Positions 4,722 to 21,122 of a DNA stretch of 29,612 nt are shown here, one piece after another (within the stretch, counting starts at the first letter, position 1; each line of letters begins with the position of its first letter). Made by a program: the position numbers and the translations under genes. The notes beneath the pieces were generated by a model, which was given only the letters and a program-made list of their open reading frames with translations, was not told where the DNA came from and made no database searches. This DNA comes from Fidelibacterota bacterium. Lineage in GTDB: Bacteria; Fidelibacterota; Marinisomatia; Marinisomatales; JAHJCW01. The stretch is from positions 1 through 29,612 of the forward strand of contig JAZGBQ010000130.1 in assembly GCA_036476435.1 (NCBI GenBank), given 5' to 3'.

Positions 4722-5457
4722 ATGACTTCAACTGGAGCAGCATGGAGCCAAACTTTAATTTAATTTGAATCTTTACTGGTATTTTTTTTGCATCATCACT
4801 AAACCAGATTTTCATATCGCCCTGATTTTTAAATAAAGTCTGTCCGTCTCGATAGGGTTTTATGACCAGGCATGTAAAAGTGCCGGCGGGTACAACGACG
4901 TTTTCCTTCTTATCAACCTTTATCTGAAAATCTGTCAGCTTATTCCGGTCAAATGCCGTGAATTCGAATGTATCGCCTACTTGTAACGGGATGGTCCTGA
5001 GATAATAAAAAAGTGAATATGGATCCCGGACATCACGCGAAATCTCAATAGTATCATTGTTTGTGATTGCAATGCCGTCCGTGTAGAAAATGTTTGAAGT
5101 AAGTTGTTTGCGGTAATCGCCCTCACGGATAGATTTGACCTGACGGTGTGTAATCAGGTTATTCAGGTCCAGCCATGTGTCAATTTGATCGCGAACTTTG
5201 TAAAGACGGTCGGCAAAAGATCCCGTTTTAGCGCTGAACTGGACATGATAGGCCGGAGCCCCATTCACTTCTTCAACACCAATGACACTTAGTGTCGCTT
5301 TGCCTGCCGGGAATATATTGAATTGAGCATTATACTGGAGTTTCTCTCCAACTTGCAGCTGTGCTGGAACTGCCTGGGCGTTCAGCACTGTCGCCATGAG
5401 ATGGGTAAGAACGAAAAGTATATTGAGCTTGAGCAGCCTATTCTCGGATAGTTTCAA
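4711..5457 (-). CDS. DUF3108-like secreted protein
   Basis: Signal peptide (..TVLNAQ), GEKLQYNAQF..AGKATL, VVPAGTFTCLVIKP and WFSDDAKKIPVKIQIKLKFGS, typical of DUF3108. Its stop overlaps the rseP stop convergently. Confidence 0.75.
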   Translation of the reverse strand: MKLSENRLLKLNILFVLTHLMATVLNAQAVPAQLQVGEKLQYNAQFNIFPAGKATLSVIGVEEVNGAPAYHVQFSAKTGSFADRLYKVRDQIDTWLDLNNLITHRQVKSIREGDYRKQLTSNIFYTDGIAITNNDTIEISRDVRDPYSLFYYLRTIPLQVGDTFEFTAFDRNKLTDFQIKVDKKENVVVPAGTFTCLVIKPYRDGQTLFKNQGDMKIWFSDDAKKIPVKIQIKLKFGSMLLQLKSFTL

Positions 5458-6031
5458 TGGACTGTCCTATAAGTTTATAGATTGTTGATCCTTTTGATTC
5501 GGGTAAAGGTCCGGTGTCCACAAGCAGATCGATAGAATCGTGGAATTCCGCAGCAATCAGATCGGGTTCGTTTAATGGCGGTTCCCCTGTTCGATTAACA
5601 CTGGTTGTCGTGTAGGGATCGGGATAAACAGTAGCGAAGCCAAGTGTAAAGGGGTGTTGGGGAATACGAATTCCTAACGTTATAAGATTGCTATTGTTAT
5701 GATCGGACTGAGCGAAGATGAGTTTACTTACCACATCAGCTACGATCGGAACTATGACAGTATTCGTACCGCCCAGCAATTTCTTTACGTTATTTGAGTC
5801 CACCTTTGTTGTGTCAATCCATAAGAGGGCCGTAGCCAAGCTTGGCGCCACGATACTCATTGGACCAGACCGCTTCTTCAGGGCATTCAATCTTCTGATC
5901 GCATCATCGTCTCTGGCATTGACACCCAATCCATAAAGTGTATCCGTTGGATATGCCAAAATACCACCATTATTTATAGTATCAGCGGCTTGTTTAAAAC
6001 AGGTTGAGTCATCAGATAATACTCTGATCAT
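5438..6031 (-). CDS. tsaC: L-threonylcarbamoyladenylate synthase (short TsaC/YrdC type)
   Basis: AYPTDTLYGLG, LKKRSGP, LGIRIP, TTSVNRTG and GSTI motifs. Start reassigned to ATG 6031, which forms an ATGA overlap with the lpxL stop at 6030-6028. Confidence 0.9.
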   Translation of the reverse strand: MIRVLSDDSTCFKQAADTINNGGILAYPTDTLYGLGVNARDDDAIRRLNALKKRSGPMSIVAPSLATALLWIDTTKVDSNNVKKLLGGTNTVIVPIVADVVSKLIFAQSDHNNSNLITLGIRIPQHPFTLGFATVYPDPYTTTSVNRTGEPPLNEPDLIAAEFHDSIDLLVDTGPLPESKGSTIYKLIGQSIETIRE

Positions 6032-6900
6032 ACACGATCCTGATGGGACTTTTTTGTTTTCCATCTCCTATGAAACCAAAAATATTGTTCCGGATGCATG
6101 CGGATCCGATTTTCCAGCATGGACGTGAACCGCTGTGTTATAGCTTCTATTGTAGGTTTACCATTGATTTCAACCGGGGCGAATTCCAATACACACTGGT
6201 TTGGTTCTTCCTCCCACGAGGTAGTGAATATAATCGGAGCCTGGGCTCGCAGGTGAAACAGTGCCGGACCTTTATGTGTTGACGCTAAGGTATTAAAAAA
6301 ATTGACAAAAATTCCACGTCTTTTGGCATCCTGATCACTTACCACCCCCAGTAACTCGCCGCGATTTAAGACAGCATACATATTATTCAGGGATTCCCGT
6401 CTGAATATGTGTTTCAGGCCGCTGAGTTCCCGTTTTTCCTGAAAAAATTTATTTGCCCCACGATTTTTTTGTCGTGCCGCAATTCCAACAAATGGATATC
6501 CTTGATACCCAACCCATGCTCCCAACAATTCCCAAACGCCAAAATGTCCTGAAACTAACACGACCCCCTTTTTCTGCAACCAGGCCTTTTTGAGAAAATC
6601 TGCACCCTGTACTCTGATGTTTGCCGAATGATATGAATCCGGAAAAGCCAGGAACAGGTAAAAATTCCTTGTAAAAAACCGGTAGCTCTGCTGCAGAACA
6701 CCGTGGTGCCAATTATTTGATTTATCTGGGAATGCCCGCTGAATGTTCCTCAGAGCCTGGCGCTTTCGCAGAGGGACAATGCGGTAAATATATCCAGCCA
6801 GACGGTTGGCAAATCGCTGTCTGCGTAAGGGTGATAGTCGACGTAGCCATAAAGAGAAGTAGGTTAGGACGGCATATGTTAGTCTGTGGTGGAAGCGCAT
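6028..6900 (-). CDS. Lipid A lauroyl/myristoyl acyltransferase family (LpxL/HtrB-like)
   Basis: VLVSGHFGVWE (H-x4-E), SDQD, VNFFN..ASTHKGPA and PEQYFWFHRRWKT. Confidence 0.9.
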   Translation of the reverse strand: MRFHHRLTYAVLTYFSLWLRRLSPLRRQRFANRLAGYIYRIVPLRKRQALRNIQRAFPDKSNNWHHGVLQQSYRFFTRNFYLFLAFPDSYHSANIRVQGADFLKKAWLQKKGVVLVSGHFGVWELLGAWVGYQGYPFVGIAARQKNRGANKFFQEKRELSGLKHIFRRESLNNMYAVLNRGELLGVVSDQDAKRRGIFVNFFNTLASTHKGPALFHLRAQAPIIFTTSWEEEPNQCVLEFAPVEINGKPTIEAITQRFTSMLENRIRMHPEQYFWFHRRWKTKKSHQDRV

Positions 6901-7062
6901 AGTTTGACCGACAATTTATCTTGAGTACAAAAGGCAGAACAAGATTAAAATAACGGGAGCGCATAACTTCACACATTCATTCTGTCCGGGATTATCCGTA
7001 AATTTTATAGCGTTAAAATACTGGTAATTGCGATCTGCGTTGCTAGAGACGAATGACAAAGC

Positions 7063-7176
7063 ATGTACAAAGATTTAATACTAAGATTATTGCGTGAGGA
7101 TGTAGCTGATGACCAGTATTATATTTGGACAGAACAAGAAGAGCAATTTACTGATCTGAATTGGAGTAACAATTGA
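7063..7176 (+). CDS. Candidate 37-aa acidic small protein (MYKDLILRLLREDVADDQYYIWTEQEEQFTDLNWSNN), below the ORF-track cutoff
   Basis: Translated by hand: ATG 7063 to TGA 7174-7176. Fills the intergenic gap upstream of the liaF-like gene. No clear SD. Confidence 0.3.
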   Translation: MYKDLILRLLREDVADDQYYIWTEQEEQFTDLNWSNN

Positions 7177-7192
7177 GGATCTCAGACGCTCT

Positions 7193-7210
7193 TATTATAT
7201 TTATATAATA
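7193..7210. promoter_or_regulatory. Perfect 8-2-8 palindrome TATTATAT-TT-ATATAATA; candidate operator overlapping a TATAAT hexamer
   Basis: Seen directly, 4 nt upstream of the AGGAGG SD (7215-7220) of the liaF-like gene. AT-rich, so chance is possible. Confidence 0.3.
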
Positions 7211-7225
7211 TATCAGGAGGTTGAT

Positions 7226-7921
7226 ATGGCTGGACATAGAAATAGATATTCACAACGGAACTGGGTTGGATTCCTGTTAATTTTAATGGGGGTTCTATTT
7301 ATTCTGGAAACGTTTGATTTCCTTGATTTCGGGTACACATTTGCCCGCTGGTGGCCGCTCATTTTGATTGTGATCGGTTTTTTAAAATTAAAAGGCCGGG
7401 AAAAAGCATGGGGTGCGATCATGCTTGGTGTCGGGGTTGCATTTTTACTGGCAAATCTTGAATTTATAGACTGGGGAGATATTTGGAGATTGTGGCCGCT
7501 GGTTCTGATTCTGATCGGACTCTCAATGGTAATGCGTAGTCGCCGGCAGTCACGATTCTGGAGACTTAGGGCTAAGGGTGAGACGTCGGATGATTTTATG
7601 CGTGCAAGTGCAATTTTCGGGGGAAATGAACAACGAGTTGTATCAAATGATTTTAAAGGTGGGGATATCATGGCTTTGTTTGGGGGTGTGGAACTGGATC
7701 TTCGACAAGCAAAAGTATCTTCAAAGGAATGTACGTTGAATCTTACCGCCCTGTTCGGCGGGATTGAGATTCTGGTGCCGCCAAATTGGGATTTAGTCGT
7801 AAGGGGAACACCCATATTCGGCGGGATCGAAAGCCGTGAATCCATGGTTGATTCTAGTGAAAAACTGAACCGGGTGGTATTTCGATGCACGGTCGCGTTC
7901 GGTAGTGTTGAAATTAAGTAA
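7226..7921 (+). CDS. LiaF-related cell-envelope stress membrane protein (N-terminal TM repeats plus DUF2154-like beta domain)
   Basis: Repeated TM motifs (RWWPLILIVIG / RLWPLVLILIG), then IFGGNEQRV..FKGGDIMALFGGVELDLRQA..ALFGGIEILVP..PIFGGIE. AGGAGG SD. Confidence 0.85.
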   Translation: MAGHRNRYSQRNWVGFLLILMGVLFILETFDFLDFGYTFARWWPLILIVIGFLKLKGREKAWGAIMLGVGVAFLLANLEFIDWGDIWRLWPLVLILIGLSMVMRSRRQSRFWRLRAKGETSDDFMRASAIFGGNEQRVVSNDFKGGDIMALFGGVELDLRQAKVSSKECTLNLTALFGGIEILVPPNWDLVVRGTPIFGGIESRESMVDSSEKLNRVVFRCTVAFGSVEIK

Positions 7922-8005
7922 TTTCTCTTATGAGAATTAATTACAACTTGGGAACTTAATGCGGTGAATCATGTGTTTATATAAAGATGTGAAGGTATTG
8001 TGTAT

Positions 8006-9364
8006 ATGAAAAGAACACTAATATTACTCTGTGGTTTTATTTGTGTATTGATAATTCCGGCTGTTGCGCAGGATATCGTTTACCGTGTTCCTATCCAGGG
8101 GACCATTGACCTTGGTTTGCCACCATTTATCGAACGGGTAATTGAAGCTGCTGAAGAAGAAGGTGCGGCAGCGGTTATATTTGATATTGACACTTTTGGC
8201 GGACGTGTTGATGCAGCTACGCAGATAAAAGATGCGATCCTTGACGCAAAACTGCCAACCATTGCATTTATAAATCGCCGCGCGATATCCGCCGGTGCAC
8301 TGATATCCTTATCCTGTGAGAAGATATACATGACCAGCGGCGGAACTATTGGCGCAGCAACGGCGGTGGACATGTCCGGTGAGAAAGGCTCGGAAAAAGT
8401 GATCAGCTATATGCGTGAAGAGATGGCATCCACGGCCGAAAGCCGTGGACGGAACACTGATATTGCCAAGGGTATGGTTGACGAAGAACTAACGTTCACC
8501 CATATAGTATTGGACGGAGATTCGATTGAGGTAACGGATCTTGAAGGCCGCAAGGAAGGTAAACTGATAACTTTGACAACAGAAACGGCCGTTAAGTACA
8601 AGATCGCTGACGGCCAAGCTGAAACCTTTGAGGAGGTATTGGCGGTTATAGGCAGTGAAAATGCTCAGATACGATCCGTGCACGAAAACTGGTCAGAGAA
8701 TTTAGTTCGATTTCTTACAAATCCAGTGGTTGCTTCCCTGCTGATGACTTTTGGATTTTTGGGTATTCTTTTTGAATTACAAAGCCCGGGGTGGGGTATT
8801 CCGGGAACGATAGGCGCGGTATGCCTGACACTGTCGCTGGGAGCCTCTTATATTGCTGAACTGGCGACCATGACAGATCTTATTATTATTCTTGTTGGTG
8901 TGGCGTTTTTACTCGTAGAGGTGTTGTTCATTCCAGGCTTTGGGGTTGCCGGAATCGCCGGGATCGGAATTATTATATGGGGTTTATACGCATTGTTATT
9001 ACCGGATATCCCGGTTGGCGAAGAGATAAAATCCATGGCACTGACAGGTTTAACAATCGGGATCTTCGGAGGGATCATTGCTTTAATTCTTCTGTTCCGA
9101 CTTATGATAAAGACAAAATTCTGGACCAAGCTAACGTCACCCGGCATTGAAAGCCAGGAGGCAGGCTTCAATACGTCCATCGGTTTGGAAGATAAGGTGG
9201 GCAAAAAAGGTGTTGCCGTCACTGACCTGAGACCTTCCGGTTGGATTACCGTTGATGATAAGCGAATATTCGTTGTCAGCGAAGGAGATTATATCGATCA
9301 GGACGACCCTGTAAACATTTTATCCGTTGAAGGTAACCGCGTTGTAGTGCGAAAGATTAAATAA
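8006..9364 (+). CDS. nfeD: Long-form NfeD (ClpP-class serine protease domain, TM bundle, C-terminal OB-fold); YqeZ-like
   Basis: IDTFGGRVDAA, AISAGALIS (catalytic Ser), SEKVISYM (Lys), KLITLT, ELQSPGWGIPG, EVLFIPGFG, TDLRPSG and VEGNRVVVR. ATG 8006 preferred over GTG 8000. Confidence 0.92.
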   Translation: MKRTLILLCGFICVLIIPAVAQDIVYRVPIQGTIDLGLPPFIERVIEAAEEEGAAAVIFDIDTFGGRVDAATQIKDAILDAKLPTIAFINRRAISAGALISLSCEKIYMTSGGTIGAATAVDMSGEKGSEKVISYMREEMASTAESRGRNTDIAKGMVDEELTFTHIVLDGDSIEVTDLEGRKEGKLITLTTETAVKYKIADGQAETFEEVLAVIGSENAQIRSVHENWSENLVRFLTNPVVASLLMTFGFLGILFELQSPGWGIPGTIGAVCLTLSLGASYIAELATMTDLIIILVGVAFLLVEVLFIPGFGVAGIAGIGIIIWGLYALLLPDIPVGEEIKSMALTGLTIGIFGGIIALILLFRLMIKTKFWTKLTSPGIESQEAGFNTSIGLEDKVGKKGVAVTDLRPSGWITVDDKRIFVVSEGDYIDQDDPVNILSVEGNRVVVRKIK

Positions 9365-9385
9365 ATTTTAGAAGGAGTAATCATT

Positions 9386-10396
9386 ATGAGTGTAATATCA
9401 ATAATCCTGTTAAGCCTAGCTATAATTTTTGTTTTTATGCTTTTCTACTTTGTGCCTGTCGGTTTATGGGTGCAGGCTGTGGTCAGTTTAGGTCTAGGCA
9501 GAATAACCATCATTGATCTGATCCGCATGCGATTACGAAAGATCCCGCCGCGCCTGGTAACAGATGGTGTGATTAATACCCACAAGGCCGGACTGGATCA
9601 CATATCAACGGATATGTTGGAAACCCATTTCCTCGCTGGTGGGAATGTACAGAATATTATCGAGGCACTTATTGCTTCGGATAAAGCCAAGATCGCTCTG
9701 CCTTTCGAAACCGCGACAGCAATCGATCTGGCTGGAAGAGATGTAAAATCTGCCGTTCAAACCAGTGTCTATCCAAAGGTTATCGACGCTCCCAAGGACG
9801 GCTACCTGGCTGCAGTTGCAAAAGACGGGATTGAGTTAAAAGCCCGTGCCCGTGTCACGGTCCGCACCAATATCCCCGGCCTGGTCGGAGGCGCTACCGA
9901 TGAAACGATCATTGCCCGCGTGGGCGAAGGAATCGTTAGTGCAATTGGATCATCGGGTACCTATAGTGACGTTCTTGAGAATCCTGACAGCATTTCCAAA
10001 GCTGTATTGGACAAAGGGTTGGATGCCGGCACGGCATTTGAGATCCTCTCTATCGATATCGCAGACCTTGACGTAGGTAAGAACGTTGGCGCCCGGCTGC
10101 AGGAAGACCAGGCTGAAGCTGATCTCAGAGTAGCCCAGGCGAAAGCGGAAACGCGTCGCGCAATGGCAGTCGCAGCGGAGCAGGAAATGAAAGCGCGAGT
10201 CGAAGAAATGCAGGCAAAAGTTGTTGAGGCCGAAGCCGAAGTCCCCAAAGCTATGGCACAGGCATTTCGAGAAGGCAATCTTGGTATTTTCGACTATTAC
10301 AATATGAAAAATATTCAGGCAGATACTGGAATGCGGGACGCTATATCCGGAAAAGATCAAGACGAGACGACTAAAGCTCCCGAAAAAACGAGTTAA
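9386..10396 (+). CDS. floA: Flotillin-like protein FloA (YqfA/UPF0365)
   Basis: [77 protein letters not shown] and [20 protein letters not shown]. Confidence 0.95.
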
Positions 10397-11063: not shown

Positions 11064-12767
11064 CTAGCGCTTGATTCGAAGCCCTTTATCTTCATTGATA
11101 AAGATCCAGGCCGCGACCTTCCCGATATTGGTGCCATTGTCCAATGACCAGTATTGCTTTCCATGATGGTATTTTGAGCTGCTGTCATCATCCGGCAAAG
11201 CATCGACATAGTGATTGATCTGCTTGATGCGATCTTGCCAGGAAACCATATTCCGTTCCCTGAGATCAACCCATCCGGACCACGACCATTCATCAATATG
11301 TTCGGCTGAGATGGTTAATGTCTCATTATATTCCTGAACAGGGATCTTCACTTCCGGGCCGCGTAAGAATTGTTTACCATCAGGCAGCAATATTGGTATG
11401 CCGATAGAGATTATCTGTGCTCGCAGAGCCGGTTCTTCTTGAATTAATATATTTAGATCTTTGGATAATTCCGAAGGACTCCGTGACAGGATGCCGGTTA
11501 TATCGCCGCATACACGACTCAATAGATAGGCCTCATATAGCAATTTTGACAGGCGAGGAGGTCCCAGGATCTCAAAGGCAACACTATCAACGTTGTGTTT
11601 TTTCTGTAAAATTTCCATTTCAGATAGTGCCTGGTGGCGAACATACCCGGCTCGGTATGTTGGGCCCATAATAGAATTATCCAGGGCATTTATTATGTCA
11701 TATCCGGTGCTGTCCCCCAATATTTCCAGAATGACATTTTCAGCAATTTCCTCCGGTGTAACAAATTCCATTTGACCGGCTGTTGTTATTGTCTCAAACT
11801 CACCAACGGAAAAAATACCATTTTCACCGGTATCGATATAGACAGATTTTAAGGTATCATTTAGATCAGACCAGTTCTGTACACCGGCAAAATGGAATGT
11901 ACTGCCAAAATCTTCTGCTTTTTCCAACGGGCAATCATATAGACGGATTGGCTGCCCGTGTTTCTTGATCTCACCGTAACGGATCTGCTTCCACGCAATT
12001 GCCGCAGCCGGTTTGACCTCCTTGCAGATTGGTCCATCGGGCGTACGACCCATGAGGAAAAGAAGCATCGTGTGCGCACCGGATAGTGATGATTTACTTA
12101 ACAGGACTCGCGACGGGCGCTCCTCGCTGTGTGTGTAAGGAATATTAAGGCCCATACCGCCCGTTCCCGTAGTGCCGATCTTAATATAAACACCGGTCTT
12201 ATTCTCGCACATGGAGGCATGCAGGATCTGAATGTGCCGAATGATCTGAGGAATATAAAGTGTCGTGAGCATTTTCTCAATCTCCGCGGATAGTTCATCT
12301 GTCAATTTGTCTTCAGACCGCGCTTTAGACAGGGTATGTTTTACATTATAATAACCACGGTAAATGTCCTGGTAGGCCAACCCTGTGGCAGTGTTCACAG
12401 CATCAATAATTATATGGGGCTTATGGCGTGAGATGATTTTGTGAAGGGTTGATCTTTGCAATATATCGCCAGAAAAAGATTCCATTGTATCTTCCAGCAG
12501 CATTTGACGGTGCGCTTGTGCATTCAACAGCGTATTACGGTCAAGGTCTTTCAATTCCTCCCTGACGAACAAATTTCCCCATACTGGTGTAAAATCGATC
12601 CCAGGAGCCATTTTTTTCATGGTTTTGCACGCGTTATCGGCTTCTTCTTTCTTTAGAGACAGAATTATTACTTCTTTTGGTTTGTGTTCGATAAGTTTGT
12701 GTAATACTGCAGTCCCGACTAAACCCCAGCCGCCTAAGACAAGAATGCGCCGGTCTCTAATATCCAT
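11064..12767 (-). CDS. Uncharacterised 567-aa Rossmann-fold protein (atypical extended SDR)
   Basis: ILVLGGWGLVG dinucleotide-binding motif and PHIIIDAVNTA; no YxxxK at the expected position. AAGGAG SD; start overlaps the ptb stop by 11 nt. Confidence 0.8.
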   Translation of the reverse strand: MDIRDRRILVLGGWGLVGTAVLHKLIEHKPKEVIILSLKKEEADNACKTMKKMAPGIDFTPVWGNLFVREELKDLDRNTLLNAQAHRQMLLEDTMESFSGDILQRSTLHKIISRHKPHIIIDAVNTATGLAYQDIYRGYYNVKHTLSKARSEDKLTDELSAEIEKMLTTLYIPQIIRHIQILHASMCENKTGVYIKIGTTGTGGMGLNIPYTHSEERPSRVLLSKSSLSGAHTMLLFLMGRTPDGPICKEVKPAAAIAWKQIRYGEIKKHGQPIRLYDCPLEKAEDFGSTFHFAGVQNWSDLNDTLKSVYIDTGENGIFSVGEFETITTAGQMEFVTPEEIAENVILEILGDSTGYDIINALDNSIMGPTYRAGYVRHQALSEMEILQKKHNVDSVAFEILGPPRLSKLLYEAYLLSRVCGDITGILSRSPSELSKDLNILIQEEPALRAQIISIGIPILLPDGKQFLRGPEVKIPVQEYNETLTISAEHIDEWSWSGWVDLRERNMVSWQDRIKQINHYVDALPDDDSSSKYHHGKQYWSLDNGTNIGKVAAWIFINEDKGLRIKR

Positions 12768-13599
12768 TTTTTTCTCCTTGAAGGATTAATAATCCAAGTG
12801 CAATTGAATTTAGTTTTGTTTCCAAAGTATCGGACCGTGATAACAGAACGATAGGGACGGAAGCACCGAGAATTATTCCGCCCCCTTGAGCTCCGCCAAT
12901 CTCCAGCAAAGCCTTGCTGACAAAATTCGTTGCCGTTATGTTGGGCCCAATAAAAACATCAGTCTGTCCGGCAATTCGGGATGACAGACCTTTAGCCCTT
13001 GCCGCCTCCCCCGATAGGGCAACATCCAGTGCAACAGGACCTTCAATAATAAAGCGTTGATCATTTTTATAGCGTTGCGCCGTCTGCTGCGCGAACATTG
13101 TTTCAGGAAGTTTTGATGTCACCTTTTCAACCAGAGCAAGCATGGCGATATTAGGTTTTGGATTTTGAAGTGCCTGTGTTACTAGTAGAACATTTTCCAG
13201 AATTGCATCTAAAATATCCTCTGAAATCCTGGTATTCACACCACCGTCAGTTGTAAGAAGTAAGCGCTTGTACCGGGGCGATTCAAGAACGGCAATGTGC
13301 GTCAATAATCGATCTTTATCTTTTCTAAGCTGTGAATTCATCACTGCTTTCAGCAGACTGGCGGTATCGATATCACCTTTCATAAGTAACCAGGGTTTAT
13401 CCGTATCCATGGCAGCCAGGGCTTTATGTGTTGCTGCAACTGGATCGGGATCCGAGAATATGTTCGGCTTGATCCAATTCTTTATTTCAGATTCCTTCAG
13501 GACCTGGAACAGGTATTCCTGTTTCGGATTAACTATTGCCAGGGATGTCGGACTTCCTCTGGAAACGACCTTACGGATGGTGTTGTAATTGGTTATCAT
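12757..13599 (-). CDS. ptb: Phosphate butyryltransferase / phosphate acyltransferase (PTA_PTB family)
   Basis: LLMKGDIDTASLLKAV, LTHIAVLE, LTTDGGVN, IEGPVALDVA and GASVPIVLLSRSD..KLNSIAL. N-terminus looks shortened. Confidence 0.85.
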   Translation of the reverse strand: MITNYNTIRKVVSRGSPTSLAIVNPKQEYLFQVLKESEIKNWIKPNIFSDPDPVAATHKALAAMDTDKPWLLMKGDIDTASLLKAVMNSQLRKDKDRLLTHIAVLESPRYKRLLLTTDGGVNTRISEDILDAILENVLLVTQALQNPKPNIAMLALVEKVTSKLPETMFAQQTAQRYKNDQRFIIEGPVALDVALSGEAARAKGLSSRIAGQTDVFIGPNITATNFVSKALLEIGGAQGGGIILGASVPIVLLSRSDTLETKLNSIALGLLILQGEKNGY

Positions 13600-13923
13600 T
13601 TATTTGTATTCCTGGACCAGCCCGGTTCCGTTTAATACTCGCAGAACACCCATGACCAATGCTTCCAGCACTGGTTCATTTATTCCATACGCACTTCCGT
13701 GCTGTGCTTTTAGGGGACCATCATGGGCTGCCATTGCATCTAAATGATCGATGGATTTCAAAAAGGGTTCAAGGAGGTTTACACTTGTTTGGCTCTGGTC
13801 AGAAATCCAAACCGGAAGGTCGTCAGCAGTATGACAGGTATGCTGGCACCATAGTTCCCGGTTATTATTAAAATACCCGACCTCGATTGTGGTAGAACCG
13901 GGATTAATGGCTAAAATAAAGAA
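13600..13923 (-). pseudogene. buk: Butyrate kinase remnant: N-terminal ~80 codons fused in frame to the last ~20 codons, no canonical start
   Basis: Hand translation: (F)FILAINPGSTTIEVGYF...SDQ...DAMAAHDGPLKAQHGSAYGINEPVLEALVMGVLRVLNGTGLVQEYK*. INPGSTT is the ASKHA phosphate-1 motif and ALVMGVLRVL.G...EY is the Buk C-terminus. SD AGGAGGTGA at 13935-13927; TAA abuts the ptb ATG. Confidence 0.88.
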
Positions 13924-13962
13924 GGCTCACCTCCTGTTTCTTCAGCTAATCGGATGTCACAC

Positions 13963-14223
13963 CTAGGCTTCTTCGTGGAATGAAGTACGAATGCCGTTAC
14001 TTGAAAAACTGTCAGCACGGCACTCATCCAATTTATTCTTTAGGGTATTGTAATGCTCAATTTCAAGTTCAGCCAGATCAAGCAGGAATTTTTTTAATTT
14101 CGGTTCAGTCATGTGCCGGGCGGCATCCCGGTAGAATTTTGAGGCATCCTGTTCTTCTGCCATAGCATACTCTAGAATGTTTTCGATTGATGTAAACTGT
14201 TGCGGCGCTTTTTTATCGACCAA
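13963..14223 (-). CDS. Small ferritin-like / rubrerythrin-family protein (single helix pair)
   Basis: AMAEEQDASKFYRDAA...LLDLAELEIEHY: E..FY plus ExxH diiron half-site. TTG start with a GAAGGAAGG SD. Confidence 0.8.
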   Translation of the reverse strand: MVDKKAPQQFTSIENILEYAMAEEQDASKFYRDAARHMTEPKLKKFLLDLAELEIEHYNTLKNKLDECRADSFSSNGIRTSFHEEA

Positions 14224-14236
14224 AAAATACCTTCCT

Positions 14237-14788
14237 TCAGATTACGGCAGGTTCTTTAACAAGCTCCATACCACGGCGCAGGGCTTTTTCATTGACCGGA
14301 ATGAGATGATGATGTCGGTCTGGTAAAATCTTGGTCAATGCCTCCAAAATAGATTCTAAACTGACGAGGGGCTTGAGAGCAAGATAAGATCCCAGCAAGA
14401 TCATGTTTAATGTTTTTTTGTTGCCCAGGGCTTCTGCCTCGATTGCCGCTGCTATCTTATTGATTGTAATATCCTTACGGGTAGGGGGATCAACGATGTT
14501 ATTAGCTTCGTAGAACAGGAAACCGTCTGGCTTAACTGTTAGTTCAAACTTTTCCAGGGAGGGTTGATTCAAAATGATCGCAGTATCGTAACGGCTAATG
14601 ATCGGTGAGCTCACTTTCGAATCAGAAATTATTACGGTACAGTTTGCTGTACCTCCACGCATTTCAGGACCGTAACTCGGGATCCAGGCAACCTGCTTGT
14701 CTTCGACCATACCGGCATAAGCCAGGGTCATCCCCAGTGATAGAACTCCCTGGCCACCAAAACCTGCAATAATAATTTCTTCGTTCAT
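14237..14788 (-). CDS. 2-oxoacid:ferredoxin oxidoreductase gamma subunit
   Basis: IIIAGFGGQGVL, PSYGPEMRGGTANC and NMILLG. Start reassigned to ATG 14788 (MNEEIII). Confidence 0.93.
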   Translation of the reverse strand: MNEEIIIAGFGGQGVLSLGMTLAYAGMVEDKQVAWIPSYGPEMRGGTANCTVIISDSKVSSPIISRYDTAIILNQPSLEKFELTVKPDGFLFYEANNIVDPPTRKDITINKIAAAIEAEALGNKKTLNMILLGSYLALKPLVSLESILEALTKILPDRHHHLIPVNEKALRRGMELVKEPAVI

Positions 14789-14792
14789 TTTA

Positions 14793-15587
14793 CTATATTC
14801 CCTTTTCCGGGAGTTTGTAATCTCCAAGGGGGAAGAAATCAACGACATCCCGGTTAATGTACTGGTTCGATTCTAGGGGAGTCATTTTCCAACCCGCGGG
14901 ACAATTTGAAATGATCTCAATAAAGCTGGTGCCGCCCTTACCTTCAACCTGGTACTGGAAGGCCGTTTTAATAGCTTTTTTTGCTTTTCGTACTGTCTTT
15001 GCAGAATTAACAGCCTGCCTGGTGACATAATAGGACCCGTCCAGGAGGGCGACAAGCTCGGACATTCTGATAGGATTCCCCTGGGTGACCAGATCGCGTC
15101 CTTCCGGAGAAGTGGATGTCACAGCACCGGCCAGCGTCGTAGGTGCCATTTGCCCCCCGGTCATGCCGTAAATCCCATTGTTGATGAAAATAATAACGAT
15201 GTTTTCACCACGATTGATCGTATGGATCGTCTCAGATGTACCGATAGCTGCCAGGTCTCCGTCGCCCTGATAAGTAAAGACTATTTTGTCTGGGAGTACC
15301 CGTTTAATACCTGTGGCAACCGCCGTTGCGCGACCGTGTGCGGCCTCCTGCATATCTATATTCAGATAATGATAAGCAAGGACCGAACAACCAACCGGTG
15401 CAACGCCGATCGTTCGATCAATTATATCCAGCTCTTCAACTATTTCCATTAACAATCTATGAACCACGGAATGCCCACATCCGGGGCAATAATGGTTCTC
15501 AATATCATATAGCGTACCAGGCCGCTCCCAAACGATGTCCAGTTGATCAAGGATTTCGCACTGAATTCCTTCTTGAATGACAGCCAT
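14793..15587 (-). CDS. 2-oxoacid:ferredoxin oxidoreductase beta subunit (TPP-binding)
   Basis: YCPGCGH, VGCS, HGRA and GDGDLAAIG...NNGIYGMTGGQMAPTT, plus SNCP. Confidence 0.95.
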   Translation of the reverse strand: MAVIQEGIQCEILDQLDIVWERPGTLYDIENHYCPGCGHSVVHRLLMEIVEELDIIDRTIGVAPVGCSVLAYHYLNIDMQEAAHGRATAVATGIKRVLPDKIVFTYQGDGDLAAIGTSETIHTINRGENIVIIFINNGIYGMTGGQMAPTTLAGAVTSTSPEGRDLVTQGNPIRMSELVALLDGSYYVTRQAVNSAKTVRKAKKAIKTAFQYQVEGKGGTSFIEIISNCPAGWKMTPLESNQYINRDVVDFFPLGDYKLPEKGI

Positions 15588-16678
15588 TATGAGTCCTTTC
15601 CCATTTGATCAGTTGATACATTGATCAATTTTGTTATTTCCTCCAGGATATCTTCCGGCTGGGGGATCATTCCACCCATGCGGCCGTAGAATTCTACCGG
15701 GGTTTCCCCGTTAACCGCCAGGCGCACGTCCTCAACCATTTGTCCTGCATTCATCTCAACCACCAGAAGCCCTTTCACTTGACGCGCCAGTTCTTGTATT
15801 GCTGTGACAGGGAATGGGAATAACGTTTGGGGTCTCAGAAGACCGATCTTTAAACCTTGTGCCCGGGCAAGTTCGAGGGCCTTAAGTGCCGACCTGGACG
15901 TTAGTCCGAAAGCAATAATAGCGTAATCGGCATCCTCAGTCTCAGTTGTTTCAAAGTGGACTTCCTTTTCCTTAATAATCTGATATTTCTTCTGGAGTCC
16001 TTGATTGATCCTTTCCATTTTTTCGGGGTCCAGGTACAGGGAAGTAATATAATGTTGATCCCGACCATTGAGACGTCCGCGCGTTGTCCAGGACGAATGA
16101 TCAACCTTATGATCTTCAATATTGTACTCAGGGAATTCCACCGACTCCATCATTTGTCCCAAAGCACCATCCGCAAGAATACAAACCGGGTTACGATACA
16201 AATCCGCCAGATCCATTCCAAGATAAACAAAATCGGCCATTTCCTGGACACTATTGGGAGCTAGCACGATCATTTTATAATCGCCGTGTCCCCCGCCTTT
16301 GACTGCCTGGAAATAATCTCCCTGGGAAGGCTGGATTGTTCCCAGTCCGGGCCCGCCGCGAACCACATTTACTAAAAGACATGGTAATTCCGCACAGGCA
16401 ATGTAAGAAATTCCTTCCTGCATCAGGCTGAAACCAGGACTGCTGGTACTGGTCATGGCTCGTTCTCCTGTACCGGCAGCTCCGTACACCATATTGATAG
16501 CAGCAACCTCACTTTCAGCCTGGACAAAAGCACCCCCCCGCTTAGGCAGTTCATTCGCAAGGTATTCCAGCAGCTCGGACTGGGGCGTGATAGGATAACC
16601 GAAGTATCCTTTCAGCCCGGCCCGTATGGCTGCCTCGGCCAGCGCCTCATTGCCTTTCATTAATAGTTTCTTTCCCAT
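15587..16678 (-). CDS. vorB: 2-oxoacid:ferredoxin oxidoreductase alpha subunit (VorB/KorA-like)
   Basis: MKGNEALAEAA, GYPITPQSE, QAESEVAAINMVYGAA, TSTSSPGFSL, RGGPGLG and VEMNAGQM. Substrate specificity cannot be established from the sequence. Confidence 0.9.
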   Translation of the reverse strand: MGKKLLMKGNEALAEAAIRAGLKGYFGYPITPQSELLEYLANELPKRGGAFVQAESEVAAINMVYGAAGTGERAMTSTSSPGFSLMQEGISYIACAELPCLLVNVVRGGPGLGTIQPSQGDYFQAVKGGGHGDYKMIVLAPNSVQEMADFVYLGMDLADLYRNPVCILADGALGQMMESVEFPEYNIEDHKVDHSSWTTRGRLNGRDQHYITSLYLDPEKMERINQGLQKKYQIIKEKEVHFETTETEDADYAIIAFGLTSRSALKALELARAQGLKIGLLRPQTLFPFPVTAIQELARQVKGLLVVEMNAGQMVEDVRLAVNGETPVEFYGRMGGMIPQPEDILEEITKLINVSTDQMGKDS

Positions 16679-16692
16679 GCTTAAATAAGCCT

Positions 16693-16980
16693 TTAATTGA
16701 TAGGAATTGTTATTGTATCTTTCAGATTTATGGTCTCGACAGACAGGTTTTTATGTTTTTTCTTTGGTTCACGGTAGACCGTAATAATTGCTTCGGGACA
16801 GACCAGCGCGCAATTTGTACAACCGGTGCAGGTATCATCGGACAGAATAGCATAATGGTAACTTTTCTTGTTGATATTTGGCGACATGGATAGCGCCTTT
16901 GGAGGACATTCTTCCAGGCACAGTTCGCAGCCCTTGCATTTTTCGATATCAATTGAAATAAAACCGTATGTTTTAGCCAT
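16693..16980 (-). CDS. 2x[4Fe-4S] ferredoxin, oxidoreductase delta subunit
   Basis: CKGCELCLEECP and CTGCTNCALVCP motifs; first gene of the OFOR operon. Confidence 0.93.
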   Translation of the reverse strand: MAKTYGFISIDIEKCKGCELCLEECPPKALSMSPNINKKSYHYAILSDDTCTGCTNCALVCPEAIITVYREPKKKHKNLSVETINLKDTITIPIN

Positions 16981-17118: not shown

Positions 17119-17712
17119 TTAAACCAGCTGATGGAAAATATTGTTGACCTGCTGCTCAAGATCTTTTTCTGGTTCGTTATTTTTTATCACGAAATCCGCC
17201 AGTCCTGTTTTCTCATCATCGGTCCATTGAAGGTCGATCCTTTTAATAATATCCTGTCGGTTCAGAGTGCCTTTTTTCAAAGCTCTTTCCAAACGGAATT
17301 TTAGCAGTGAGGTCACGACAATATTATAATCGAGGTGTTGATCCAGGCCCGATTCAAAAATCAGTGCACCGTCAACAACAAAGAGTGGATTTTTATTTTT
17401 TTCAGCAATTGAATCAAAGCGTTTATACAAAACGTCGAACAGATAAGGGTGTATAATTGCGTTTAACCGTAATTGGTGGTCCTCGTCCTGAAATGCTATA
17501 CGTCCCAGCTTTTGCTTGCTGATGTTACCGTCCGGTTCAAGGATGTCGCTGCCAAACTCTGCGATTAGCTCTTGTTGGACGATTACACTTTTAACGAGGA
17601 TAGTTTTTGCTTCGGCGTCGGCATCGAAAACATAGGCGCCGAGTTTTTTAAAATATTTGCTCGCAGCACTTTTTCCTGATCCGATTCCCCCGGTTAAACC
17701 AATTTTTAACAT
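17119..17712 (-). CDS. coaE: Dephospho-CoA kinase
   Basis: IGLTGGIGSGKS, FDAD, LNAIIHP, LIFESGL and ADFVIKN. Confidence 0.95.
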   Translation of the reverse strand: MLKIGLTGGIGSGKSAASKYFKKLGAYVFDADAEAKTILVKSVIVQQELIAEFGSDILEPDGNISKQKLGRIAFQDEDHQLRLNAIIHPYLFDVLYKRFDSIAEKNKNPLFVVDGALIFESGLDQHLDYNIVVTSLLKFRLERALKKGTLNRQDIIKRIDLQWTDDEKTGLADFVIKNNEPEKDLEQQVNNIFHQLV

Positions 17713-17742
17713 GACTGATTACTTACTTAATTACTTAGTTAA

Positions 17743-18309
17743 TTATTCATTTAGAACGTCAATGATCCTTTGTGTTATTATTTCTATTGATCCTAATCCA
17801 TTCACTTTGAGCAGCTGTTTTCTGGATCGATAAAAATCTAGCAGCGGTGCTGTCTGTTGCCAGTAAACGCGCTGTCGATTCTTTATTACGTCGGGGGTAT
17901 CATCGCTCCTCCGGCTGGAAGACTGTCCACGCAGTATAAGCCGTTGAATAAGGGCATCCTCATCGGCAAATAAGTTAATGGCTCCGCGAAGCTCCTGATC
18001 TTGATTTATCAGGATCTGTTCAAGTCCTTCAGCTTGCCTGATGGTGCGTGGAAATCCATCCAAAATATAGCCCTTTGTACAATCTTTCTGAACCAGTCGA
18101 TTTTCCATCATGTTAAGCAATAGATCATCCGGCACAAGCTTACCAACGTCCATAAATTGTTTCGCTTTAATCCCAAGTTCGGTTCTTTTGCTTATTTCGT
18201 TACGAAGAATCGCGCCCGATGAAAGATGAATAATTGAAAAATAATTGCCTAGAAGCTCGGCCTGGGTGCCTTTTCCGACACCCGGAGGTCCCATGAGTAT
18301 TAAGCGCAT
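17743..18309 (-). CDS. adk: Adenylate kinase (short-LID type)
   Basis: GPPGVGKGTQA, HLSSGAILR, GKLVPDD, YILDGFPRT and RRSDDT..IKNRQRVY. Confidence 0.95.
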   Translation of the reverse strand: MRLILMGPPGVGKGTQAELLGNYFSIIHLSSGAILRNEISKRTELGIKAKQFMDVGKLVPDDLLLNMMENRLVQKDCTKGYILDGFPRTIRQAEGLEQILINQDQELRGAINLFADEDALIQRLILRGQSSSRRSDDTPDVIKNRQRVYWQQTAPLLDFYRSRKQLLKVNGLGSIEIITQRIIDVLNE

Positions 18310-18328
18310 GTTCGAATTCCTGCTAGCT

Positions 18329-19546
18329 TTAAATTAACATTCCGGCAATCGTTGCGGTTAGCCAGGACGCAAGTGCTCCTCCAACCATAGCCCGCATGGC
18401 CAATTTGGCAAGGTCCTTCCGGCGATTCGGGGCGATTCCCCCCAGTCCGCCGATCTGTATTCCGATGGAGGCGAAATTAGCAAAGCCACATAAGGCATAA
18501 CTTGCAATGATAGAAGTTCGTTCAGAAATGGCGTTCTCCATTCTGAGTGTACTTAAATCGGAATAGGCAATTAATTCTGTAAGTACGATCTTTTCGCCCA
18601 TCAACGTTCCCAGGATCCCCGCTTCAGACCAGGGTGCACCCATGGTCCAGGCCAGGGGTCTGAAGATAAATCCCAGGATATCCTGGAGGGTCAACCCTGC
18701 CAAACCCAGCAAGGAATTCAACATTGCGATAATAGCTACAAATGCTATCAGCATGGCGCCCACATTTGCTGCCAGTTTTAATCCTTGCGTCGCGCCGTCG
18801 GATAATGCTTCCATTACATTATCACTGGTTTTTTCCACATTTACTTTAAGAGTGCCCGCTGTTTCCGATACTTCCGTCTCCGGATAGATTAGTTTCGCTA
18901 CTACCATTGCAGCTGGTGCACTCATGATGGAGGCCGCCATCAAATGCCCGGCAATTCCCGGGATGTCCGTGAGCATTTTCACATAAATTGCCATAACGCC
19001 CCCGGCCACAGTTGCAAATCCCCCTGTCATCACAGCCATGATTTCCGATTTGGTCATGTTCTGGATGAAAGGGCGGATCATGAGGGGGGCTTCGGTTTGA
19101 CCCACAAAAATATTTGCAGAAACGCTAAGTGTTTCGGCACCACTGGTCTTAAGTGTTTTCTGCATCCCGCGAGCAATCCATTTAACGACCCATTGCATTA
19201 TCCCCAGGTAATACAAAATTGCCATGAGCGAAGAGAAAAAGATAATGGTAGGTAATGTGCGGAATGCAAAATTTATCAAAGGGCCTTCAACTTTACCCGT
19301 GAGATAGGATTTGAACAGAAAGTCACTCCCGGCATCCGAAAAACTGAGAAGTTTTCTGATAAAGAAATCAATATACTCGAAGAGAGGCTGTCCGATGGGA
19401 GATTTAAGGATGAACAGCGCGAACAGCAATTGGATCCCCAATCCCCAGAAGACGATCCTCCAATTGATGGCTTTGCGGTTATTAGAAATTGCGTAGGCGA
19501 TGAGAAGCAATGAAAAAATTCCCAGAATACCAATATATCTATCCAT
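18329..19546 (-). CDS. nupC: Concentrative nucleoside transporter (CNT/NupC family)
   Basis: LPTIIFFSSL, SANIFVGQTEAPL, GFATVAGGV, GEKIVLTE and YALCGFANFASIGIQIGG. Confidence 0.93.
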   Translation of the reverse strand: MDRYIGILGIFSLLLIAYAISNNRKAINWRIVFWGLGIQLLFALFILKSPIGQPLFEYIDFFIRKLLSFSDAGSDFLFKSYLTGKVEGPLINFAFRTLPTIIFFSSLMAILYYLGIMQWVVKWIARGMQKTLKTSGAETLSVSANIFVGQTEAPLMIRPFIQNMTKSEIMAVMTGGFATVAGGVMAIYVKMLTDIPGIAGHLMAASIMSAPAAMVVAKLIYPETEVSETAGTLKVNVEKTSDNVMEALSDGATQGLKLAANVGAMLIAFVAIIAMLNSLLGLAGLTLQDILGFIFRPLAWTMGAPWSEAGILGTLMGEKIVLTELIAYSDLSTLRMENAISERTSIIASYALCGFANFASIGIQIGGLGGIAPNRRKDLAKLAMRAMVGGALASWLTATIAGMLI

Positions 19547-19551
19547 TTAAT

Positions 19552-20112
19552 CTATCCTTGAGGTGGTTGATAGCAACTCCGGCAGCGCGCTTCATAAATA
19601 TCAGTTTCACCAATGATTACCTGTTCTTCTTCACTTGTAGTCCGCTGAGTATACGTAGCGGGATTGCCGCAAATTACACATATTGCGCGAAGCTTATCCA
19701 GGTAGTCTGCTTCACACATGATTTCCGGCATGGGGCCGAATGGCTTTCCGCGATAGTCAGTGTCCAGGCCTGCCACAATTACGCGTTTTTTGTGCAAACT
19801 TAACTGCTTGCAGACATCAACAAGGTCATCATCAAAAAACTGAGCCTCATCAATGGCAACAACATCGATTTTTCTCGATAGACCAATAATATCTTTTGAA
19901 GAACGCACTGTGACTGATCCCAGCTTGTTTTTATTATGCGAAACAACATGCTTGGAACTGTATCGATCGTCAACAACCGGTTTAATTATTATTATATTCT
20001 GACGGGCAATCTCGGCGCGCCTGACTCGTCGAATAAGTTCTTCGGTCTTTCCGCTGAACATACTCCCGCAAATGACTTCGATCCAGCCGGCATCTCGCGG
20101 TGTCCAGGTCAT
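19552..20112 (-). CDS. tdk: Thymidine kinase
   Basis: ICGSMFSGKTEEL, AIDEAQFF, VAGLDTDYRGKPF and the zinc Cys pairs CVIC / CRSC. Confidence 0.97.
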   Translation of the reverse strand: MTWTPRDAGWIEVICGSMFSGKTEELIRRVRRAEIARQNIIIIKPVVDDRYSSKHVVSHNKNKLGSVTVRSSKDIIGLSRKIDVVAIDEAQFFDDDLVDVCKQLSLHKKRVIVAGLDTDYRGKPFGPMPEIMCEADYLDKLRAICVICGNPATYTQRTTSEEEQVIIGETDIYEARCRSCYQPPQG

Positions 20113-20115
20113 AGA

Positions 20116-20745
20116 TTAATTTCTCCTCGATAATATGGAATTTATTTTAGTTCTTATCAAATCGATGGCAACACGGTTTTGTCCGCCTTCGGGAATAATG
20201 ATGTCAGCATAAAATTTTGACGGCTCTACGAATTGTTCGTGCATGGGACGAACAGTATGTAAATATTGATCTATCACGGATTGAGACGACCGTTTGCGTT
20301 CATTAAGGTCACGCGTGAGGCGGCGTATAAAACGTACGTCGGAAGGAGTTTCAACATAGATTTTAATATCCATTAACCTTCGCAGTTCAGGATAATGTAA
20401 GGTAAATATGCCCTCTAAAACAATTACAGAGTGGGGGACGATATCCTGATGGGGCGTAGCCCTGATATGTCGGACAAAATTGTAAACGGGAGCTTTTATT
20501 TCAGTACCGGAAATAAGGGTTTCCAGTTGTTCCGCAAGCAATACGATGTCAATGGCGTCCGGGTGGTCAAAGTTCTGTTTATGACGTTCCTCAAGAGGCA
20601 GATGTGATAGGTCCCTGTAATAAGAATCCTGCTGCAGCACAACGACCTCACCGTGCCCATATTCCTCCAGTAATTTATTTGCTATGGATGTCTTCCCGGA
20701 ACCGGTTCCTCCGGCGATTCCAATTAGTACGGACGATTTACTCAT
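20116..20745 (-). CDS. udk: Uridine kinase
   Basis: IGIAGGTGSGKT, QDSYY, NFDHPDA, RFIRRLTRD..ER, FVEPSK and ADIIIP. Confidence 0.97.
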   Translation of the reverse strand: MSKSSVLIGIAGGTGSGKTSIANKLLEEYGHGEVVVLQQDSYYRDLSHLPLEERHKQNFDHPDAIDIVLLAEQLETLISGTEIKAPVYNFVRHIRATPHQDIVPHSVIVLEGIFTLHYPELRRLMDIKIYVETPSDVRFIRRLTRDLNERKRSSQSVIDQYLHTVRPMHEQFVEPSKFYADIIIPEGGQNRVAIDLIRTKINSILSRRN

Positions 20746-21122
20746 GACAGATGATCGTGCTCGAATGCGTTCGGAAGTAAGTTCTTACTGGAGGTTTCAT
20801 TAAGATTTCCCTTGGAATCAGCAATGGTCACCGGAATGTCTTTGCATAGATCCCAGATAACCTGCCGGCAGGCACCGCAGGGCGGTCCGCCGTTCTCGGT
20901 TGCCACCGCCAGGGCTGTAAAAGTAGTGTGCCCTTCCGCAATAGCATGATACAGGGCAGCTCTCTCGGCACAGCAGGTAAGCCCATAACTGCTTGATTCG
21001 ACGTTGCATCCACCAATGATGGAGCCGTCAGCGGTCATTATTGCCGCCCCGACCCTGTAATGCGAATAAGGTGCGTGAGCCCGTGTCCTCATGGTGAATG
21101 CTGTTTCGATTAATTTATCCAT
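20742..21122 (-). CDS. cdd: Cytidine deaminase (homotetrameric type)
   Basis: AHAPYSHYRVGAA, GCNVES, CAERAA and PCGACRQ. Confidence 0.97.
   Translation of the reverse strand: MDKLIETAFTMRTRAHAPYSHYRVGAAIMTADGSIIGGCNVESSSYGLTCCAERAALYHAIAEGHTTFTALAVATENGGPPCGACRQVIWDLCKDIPVTIADSKGNLNETSSKNLLPNAFEHDHLS

Follow-up and report, generated by a model that had tools for sequence, protein, structure and literature searches.

In contig JAZGBQ010000130.1 of a Fidelibacterota bacterium (assembly GCA_036476435.1), whose positions 1 to 29,612 are referred to below as the window, a run of eight reading frames lies head to tail on the minus strand. By open reading frames (ORFs) and Pfam and NCBIfam matches the run comprises the delta, alpha, beta and gamma subunits of a VOR-type 2-oxoacid:ferredoxin oxidoreductase (OFOR), a rubrerythrin-like gene, a remnant of the butyrate kinase gene (buk), a gene similar to that of phosphate butyryltransferase (ptb) and, closing the operon, the gene of a 567-amino-acid Rossmann protein, designated here as X, which is the subject of the present analysis. 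In the order of transcription the features are the following:

16693-16980, minus strand: OFOR delta subunit, first gene of the four-subunit unit 14237-16980 (Pfam)
15587-16678, minus strand: OFOR alpha subunit (NF005507 VorB, 548 bits against a cut-off of 399 bits)
14793-15587, minus strand: OFOR beta subunit (Pfam)
14237-14848, minus strand: OFOR gamma subunit (Pfam)
13963-14223, minus strand: rubrerythrin/ferritin-like gene, 86 amino acids (PF02915, E 5e-7)
13600-13926, minus strand: N-terminal remnant of butyrate kinase, 108 codons (stop-to-stop frame; tblastn against full-length buk of relatives)
12757-13599, minus strand: ptb-like phosphate acyltransferase, 280 amino acids (PF01515, E 3.9e-26)
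11064-12767, minus strand: X, oxidoreductase of the Ind2 family (PF27054), 567 amino acids, last gene of the operon (ORF, PF27054 on homologues, Foldseek match to Ind2)

The OFOR subunits were recognised by Pfam matches to POR_N/PFOR_II, TPP_enzyme_C, POR and Fer4. The genes are tightly packed: delta and alpha are separated by 14 nt, alpha and beta overlap by 1 nt, gamma is followed after 13 nt by the rubrerythrin-like gene and the latter after 36 nt by the buk remnant, all gaps of the operon being at most 36 nt or replaced by overlaps. The ptb ATG stands directly after the stop codon of the buk remnant, and ptb and X overlap by 11 nt. An earlier note, made from the DNA letters, had described this head-to-tail order with small gaps and the 11-nt overlap, and it was re-derived here from the ORFs and family matches. 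The same cluster order was found in relatives with 60-75% protein identity, thus the arrangement is not due to chance. Simple promoter and terminator scans gave nothing above shuffle expectation. The best protein matches are from Marinimicrobia/Fidelibacterota, and DNA of the locus was found in public cold-seep and marine-sediment DNA runs as short low-depth contigs; none of the RNA runs among the public runs listed holds it.

Family identity and fold of X

X belongs to the Ind2 family (PF27054, Beta_methylindole_red_C), and this assignment is well founded. The family is annotated on a protein identical to X (P0002) and on all 120 listed homologues, and the ESM Atlas clusters carry it at 95-100%; the assignment by Pfam rests on this precomputed annotation. 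An AlphaFold2 model of X built on 59 diverse homologues reached a predicted local distance difference test (pLDDT) score of 90 and a predicted template modelling (pTM) score of 0.88. When this model was compared by Foldseek with the Swiss-Prot part of AFDB, it was matched along residues 1-566 of 567 by A0A0D4BSN8 (E 2.3e-39, 30% identity), and the next matches were generic short-chain dehydrogenases/reductases (SDRs) with E of about 1e-6, which covered residues 1-253 only. A0A0D4BSN8 is Ind2, the beta-methylindole-3-pyruvate reductase of Streptomyces griseus (570 amino acids), described as an NADH-dependent ketone reductase which converts 3-methylindolepyruvate to indolmycenic acid, a 2-hydroxy acid (PMC8246080; PMC5925218); the PanE homologue CxnC was proposed as its functional equivalent (PMC5925218). 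Local Pfam, NCBIfam and PDB sequence searches recognised only the Rossmann N-terminus of X.

The earlier note had regarded X as uncharacterised, with about 300 residues that could not be assigned. This description has to be given up, as X is a full-length homologue of Ind2 and a further member of an already named family, one member of which has been assayed. The finding of a full-length match to a characterised family goes partly against what the note had made of X, and its idea of a hydroxyacid dehydrogenase still fits.

The family is large (over 8000 sequences after clustering at 90%, and some 250 clusters at 50% identity and E below 1e-30), and its members are spread over Marinimicrobia, Calditrichota, Ignavibacteriota, Bacteroidota and Gemmatimonadota and are highly conserved, with 52-55% identity of X between phyla. 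Database labels are confined to "short-chain dehydrogenase" or "hypothetical", the names of distant cluster members gave no functional hint, and the literature search returned no match for the family or the enzyme name and nothing relevant on ptb or buk of Marinimicrobia. Ind2 and X are alike in length (570 and 567 amino acids), in their two-part architecture, in being alignable along residues 1-566 at 30% identity and in Pfam family. They differ in that the gene of Ind2 is part of an antibiotic cluster and its substrate is a methylated indolepyruvate, while X is found in primary, fermentative or housekeeping contexts of bacteria of the Fibrobacterota-Chlorobiota-Bacteroidota (FCB) group. As the identity to Ind2 is only 30%, the Ind2 substrate is not transferable to X.

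Family membership and fold are established, and X can be divided into two parts:

12009-12767, minus strand: N-terminal SDR-fold NAD(P)-binding half, residues 1-253 (VIA-align, Foldseek, weak Pfam Epimerase match)
11067-12008, minus strand: C-terminal family-specific part, PF27054 region, residues 254-567 (modelled alone, matches within the family only)

The Rossmann fold and the N-terminal glycine-rich dinucleotide motif by which SDRs are recognised are both present in X. The three motifs quoted in the earlier note were all located, namely GGWGLVG at residues 12-18 (12714-12734), GTTGTGGMGLNIPYTHSEE at residues 198-216 and RVLLSKS at residues 220-226, the last two making up a conserved loop and helix (together 12090-12176). 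In the 59 sequences, which go down to 26% identity, G12, G15 and G18 are invariant and conservation reaches 90% or more at about 40 positions, most of them polar, including K196, T199, T212, H213, K225, E315, N316, R377, K408, E412 and D501, which is the pattern of an enzyme and not of a sensor. There is no YxxxK in X; the helix after strand 5 (residues 220-241) contains K225, which is nearly invariant, and V221 four positions before it. Judging from the order of secondary-structure elements, K225 would stand at the place of the SDR lysine and V221 at that of the tyrosine. When the family profile was aligned by hhalign with FabG of the same genome, residues 3-52 only were aligned.

The N-terminal half was aligned by VIA-align with classical SDRs at Z 15-17 over about 230 residues. 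Classical SDR ketoreductases (AerF, 6jh7; MalC, 6nkh; sepiapterin reductase) have this fold in common with X (Z 16-17, about 230 residues), but identity is 10-15%, and X is longer by about 315 residues and is without a YxxxK. According to the title of PDB entry 6jhb, AerF binds 4-hydroxyphenylpyruvate. The closest sequence and Foldseek PDB matches of the Rossmann part are extended SDRs of the CapD/PglF/Pen type (PF02719/PF01370; 3pvz, 6bwc, 5bjx), with the difference that only the first 60-250 residues match, the scores are far below the cut-offs and X is without their nucleotide-sugar-binding C-terminal domain. PglF likewise lacks the canonical SDR tyrosine. The Pfam Epimerase match on X has 23 bits and covers residues 8-128 against profile positions 1-76 of 240, Polysacc_synt_2 is below the cut-off, PDB profile matches span about 60 residues, and the Foldseek PDB matches (PglF, Pen, AerF) span residues 1-253 only. 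An identity of X as an extended SDR nucleotide-sugar epimerase or dehydratase (PF01370, PF02719) is not supported, the matches being partial and N-terminal and the C-terminal half being unmatched.

The C-terminal 318 residues modelled alone gave a pLDDT of 89 and a pTM of 0.90. The PDB fold search with this half yielded no match (VIA best Z 3.7; Foldseek E above 3), and in AFDB clusters and the ESM Atlas only its own family was matched. As modelled, the C-terminal half is without a structural relative outside the family, either solved or predicted.

Gene-order history of the ptb-X link

For the gene-order study 114 loci with full-length X homologues were read, a FastTree tree of 120 sequences was built and 201 genomes of the phylum were sampled. 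The history of the ptb-X link, which is newly worked out here and, like the gene order itself, is established, includes one origin within a class, two losses of the cassette, one independent origin and a replacement by an aminotransferase. The ptb-linked X copies form one clade of 30 with support 99, which matches the class of the window, and buk-ptb-X or VOR-rbr-buk-ptb-X (rbr, rubrerythrin-like gene) is present in 24 of its 30 members. In a basal subclade (L004) buk-ptb-X is a three-gene unit of its own beside a divergent ABC transporter, and the remaining ptb-linked loci have the order coaE-VOR-rbr-buk-ptb-X. The spacing between ptb and X ranges from -14 to +126 nt and in most cases does not exceed 32 nt; the identical 11-nt overlap is seen in 8 loci.

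Nested in the ptb-linked clade are four loci in which X lies directly after coaE (L017, L023-25), and ptb was not found in their genomes; it follows that the VOR-buk-ptb cassette was lost twice while X stayed. The opposite situation is met in a sister genus within the window's own family, where two genomes (G175, G182) possess coaE-VOR-buk-ptb with full-length buk and no X. In both a 441-amino-acid class I/II aminotransferase gene begins 3 nt after ptb and is followed by upp (L124 3415-4740 and L125 1315-2619, minus strand). This aminotransferase is present in 12 of the 201 genomes and X in 0 of these 12, which is no more than suggestive, these genomes being related and not independent of each other.

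In the whole sample X was found in 67 genomes and ptb in 132. Besides G175 and G182, ptb without X is characteristic of family f24 (33 of 33 genomes with ptb, 0 of 33 with X) and family f26 (27 of 30 and 0 of 30), while X without ptb is seen in G012, G123, G140 and family f20. X is therefore separable from the cassette both ways and can be considered accessory and not a dedicated step. The proposal of the earlier note that X is a dedicated new step of the VOR-Ptb-Buk pathway was not borne out: most homologues outside one Marinimicrobia class are unlinked to vor, ptb and buk, ptb is common in genomes of the phylum that have no X, and X is retained after loss of the cassette. The neighbourhood linkage to which the note had tied its proposal stands in that class and in one Ignavibacteriota locus (L073) and fails elsewhere.

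In other classes of the phylum, as well as in Calditrichota, KSB1 and Gemmatimonadota, X lies in the run (trpS-scpA-scpB-)rluB-X-cmk(-rpsA), and this housekeeping position, which is basal and sister on the tree, is probably ancestral. The L073 locus (4040-9633) comprises a lone POR-gamma-like gene, a 330-amino-acid ptb, X after a gap of 209 nt and an M3/M2-type peptidase gene; here ptb and X came together a second time, independently of the Marinimicrobia class. Upstream of this locus the gene of RtcB is broken into two reading frames. One clade of Bacteroidota has three further same-strand genes behind X, for an S46 dipeptidyl-peptidase, an alanine-transaminase-like protein (NF006033, 644.8 against a cut-off of 647 bits) and a DUF5700 putative Zn-peptidase (L079, L095, L106, L114; also L097, L105), an arrangement which looks like a peptide/amino-acid catabolic cluster. 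Another group of loci has an aldehyde dehydrogenase, a PsbP-like gene and YbjQ in front of X.

In two distant branches (27-31% identity) X is placed directly behind genes resembling that of tryptophanyl-tRNA synthetase (TrpRS; PF00579), at L118 4879-7671 and L119 3829-7668. Since indolmycin is a TrpRS inhibitor (PMC5925218), this position fits the theme of Ind2 and indolmycin, and both loci may be clusters of the indolmycin type that include a resistant TrpRS. One of the two looks like a biosynthetic cluster. Around X of L118 (Wukongibacter) there are radical-SAM, carrier-protein, carbamoyltransferase and thioesterase genes, and L119 contains a pair of TrpRS-like genes along with a Trp repressor and a fusion of chorismate mutase and methyltransferase.

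Proposed reaction of X and competing explanations

X was repeatedly found beside enzymes of 2-oxo acids: next to VOR and Ptb twice independently, with a transaminase and peptidases in Bacteroidota, and in a slot which in the sister genus is taken by an aminotransferase. Ind2 itself acts after a transaminase. These contexts together with the Ind2 reaction make a 2-oxoacid/2-hydroxyacid oxidoreductase the best reading of X. On balance it is somewhat probable that X is such an enzyme, NAD(P)H-linked and placed where amino-acid fermentation branches at the 2-oxo acids, and that it is accessory and not obligatory there; the substrate class, direction and cofactor are those that we infer. The suggestion of the earlier note, "amino-acid or 2-hydroxyacid dehydrogenase", survives in its second half, which agrees with the full-length Ind2 homology and with the aminotransferase in the slot, while no match to a Glu, Leu or Phe dehydrogenase fold was obtained for the first.

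In the proposed mechanism the SDR-fold half would bind NAD(P)H and X, with its family-specific C-terminal half, would interconvert a 2-oxo acid and its corresponding 2-hydroxy acid. In the window's genome, which is that of a cold-seep/sediment member of Marinimicrobia, a single message would code for X, the VOR-type oxidoreductase and Ptb, and for this reason X most likely acts on the same pool of amino-acid-derived 2-oxo acids, branched-chain and possibly aromatic, which VOR oxidises to acyl-CoA. The NAD-linked oxidation of 2-hydroxy acids is thermodynamically uphill and Ind2 is reductive, thus the reductive direction is slightly favoured: NADH would be dumped onto a part of the 2-oxo acids with the formation of 2-hydroxy acids, and this NADH sink would balance the oxidative, ATP-yielding VOR-Ptb(-Buk) branch. 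Alternatively, 2-hydroxy acids might be fed by X into VOR.

Functional analogues of X would be the 2-hydroxyacid dehydrogenases of amino-acid fermenters, such as the phenyllactate dehydrogenase FldH and hydroxyisocaproate dehydrogenases, which have in common with X the reaction proposed for it and its proposed place at the branch point of oxidative and reductive 2-oxo acid routes; they differ in fold, belonging to the D-2-hydroxyacid or L-lactate dehydrogenase families, and no homology to X was detected. The Bacillus subtilis bkd operon, which includes ptb, leucine dehydrogenase, buk and the branched-chain 2-oxoacid dehydrogenase, is similar in that a dehydrogenase gene is placed with ptb, buk and a 2-oxoacid-oxidising complex. 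The window operon differs in that the oxidation is carried out by a ferredoxin-dependent VOR and that its dehydrogenase, which comes from a different family, is not an obligatory member.

Several observations weigh against the oxidoreductase at the 2-oxoacid branch point. X is kept where the cassette was lost, and ptb is widespread without X. The apparently ancestral site of X is a housekeeping run without a metabolic partner, and in about 25 Melioribacter/Ignavibacteria loci X stands alone, divergent from hisS and PTS-EIIA genes. The sole assayed member, Ind2, is 30% identical and belongs to secondary metabolism, and the usual tyrosine of the SDR YxxxK motif appears to be missing from X. Moreover, the ATP-yielding branch may be decaying in the window's genome, where buk is a remnant and no other kinase of the acetate/butyrate-kinase family (PF00871) was found, the genome being 61% complete.

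The main competing explanation is that X would be a stand-alone housekeeping oxidoreductase with a substrate unrelated to VOR, Ptb and Buk, its adjacency to ptb in one Marinimicrobia class being a historical accident. Besides the rluB-X-cmk(-rpsA) position in basal and sister lineages and the ability of X and the cassette to outlast each other, such an explanation is favoured by the conservation between phyla, a probable sign of one common function under strong constraint, and by the location of X in the window at the end of a long nucleoside-salvage run (cdd-udk-tdk-nupC-adk-coaE) and elsewhere next to cmk. We regard it as doubtful, though deserving serious attention, because the ptb-X adjacency was held throughout a class in two larger contexts, often with overlapping codons, and arose a second time in L073, the slot of X is taken by an aminotransferase, other clades pair X with peptidases and a transaminase, and a gene found in just 67 of the 201 genomes sampled from the phylum is no universal housekeeping gene. 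The aminotransferase in the slot of the sister genus, which turns an amino acid into a 2-oxo acid, could also be read in favour of an NAD(P)+-dependent amino-acid dehydrogenase that would make the 2-oxo acids for VOR, as a counterpart of the leucine dehydrogenase adjoining ptb and buk in the bkd operon. This is unlikely, as the one relative with an assayed activity acts on a ketone, with an alcohol as product, and not on an imine, and as likeness to Glu, Leu or Phe dehydrogenase folds was absent from Pfam, NCBIfam, PDB profile and structure searches.

The seeming absence of the YxxxK tyrosine, with Val at residue 221 and Lys225 kept by the order of secondary-structure elements only, speaks for a non-catalytic NAD(H)-sensing regulator similar to NmrA, as the earlier note had also considered. 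This is very improbable: Ind2 of the same family is a working reductase, many polar residues are conserved throughout the family, neither a DNA-binding domain nor a regulatory partner was seen in any context, and NmrA was not among the Pfam/NCBIfam matches or the top structural matches of X. Two further identities were tried and rejected on their phyletic pattern. A non-orthologous prephenate dehydrogenase substituting for TyrA was suggested by the neighbouring cmk, and PF02153 was found in 168 of 201 genomes including those with X. A non-orthologous ketopantoate reductase was suggested by the coaE-X adjacency and by the CxnC/PanE relation, and strong ApbA/PanE matches were found in the window's genome and in many others with X.

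Beyond the reading of X as an oxidoreductase at the 2-oxoacid branch point, a wider hypothesis is possible but tentative. The FCB-group branch of the Ind2 family may represent unrecognised 2-oxoacid/2-hydroxyacid oxidoreductases of primary metabolism with a new C-terminal fold, which in sediment Marinimicrobia would form the arm of ferredoxin-dependent amino-acid fermentation that consumes NADH (or feeds in 2-hydroxy acids) and could replace an aminotransferase at the entry of the VOR-Ptb-Buk pathway. A primary-metabolism substrate, once known, would fill a gap in the metabolic models of abundant, mostly uncultured bacteria of sediments and ocean and would show how redox is balanced during the fermentation of peptides and amino acids. 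Half of the protein is a fold for which no relative, solved or predicted, was found outside the family, and a single member of that family, which takes part in antibiotic synthesis, has been assayed. The gene-order history confines the guess to the 2-oxo acid node; among cultured organisms the family is carried by Caldithrix abyssi and Melioribacter roseus. What the present analysis adds is the account of how the link with ptb arose and was lost, the neighbours of X in other phyla that belong to the catabolism of amino acids and peptides, and the C-terminal half without a structural relative.

Other genes of the operon and the upstream run

The frame of the buk remnant has no start codon, a TGA standing just upstream in the DNA sequence, and a good Shine-Dalgarno-like AGGAGGTGA is still present; the remnant is in phase with ptb, with a single TAA between them. 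In relatives buk encodes 264-362 amino acids, and compared with them the remnant is short by about 200-250 residues. A contig of another public run (X2) covers 13610-13926 without a gap, therefore the short form is probably real and not an assembly slip.

For the ptb-like protein the top NCBIfam models are those of phosphate butyryltransferase, and all scores against the phosphate butyryl- and acetyltransferase models are below the cut-offs (best 187 against 410 bits). The ptb-like proteins of relatives have 275-280 amino acids. Since the scores are well below the cut-offs, this short protein may come from a diverged subfamily whose acyl specificity is distinct. The rubrerythrin-like gene between OFOR gamma and buk is kept in several relatives (L007, P0004 contig) and is missing from the cassette of the sister genus.

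Directly upstream of the VOR cassette a nucleoside/nucleotide salvage run (17119-21122, minus strand) is situated, all genes of which were assigned by Pfam:

20742-21122, minus strand: cdd
20116-20745, minus strand: udk
19552-20112, minus strand: tdk
18329-19546, minus strand: nupC-type transporter gene
17743-18309, minus strand: adk
17119-17712, minus strand: coaE

Since X adjoins cmk in other phyla, closeness to nucleoside monophosphate kinase genes is recurrent, for which no explanation was found; in the window the run ends with coaE, the gene that also precedes the VOR cassette in the ptb-linked loci outside the basal subclade.

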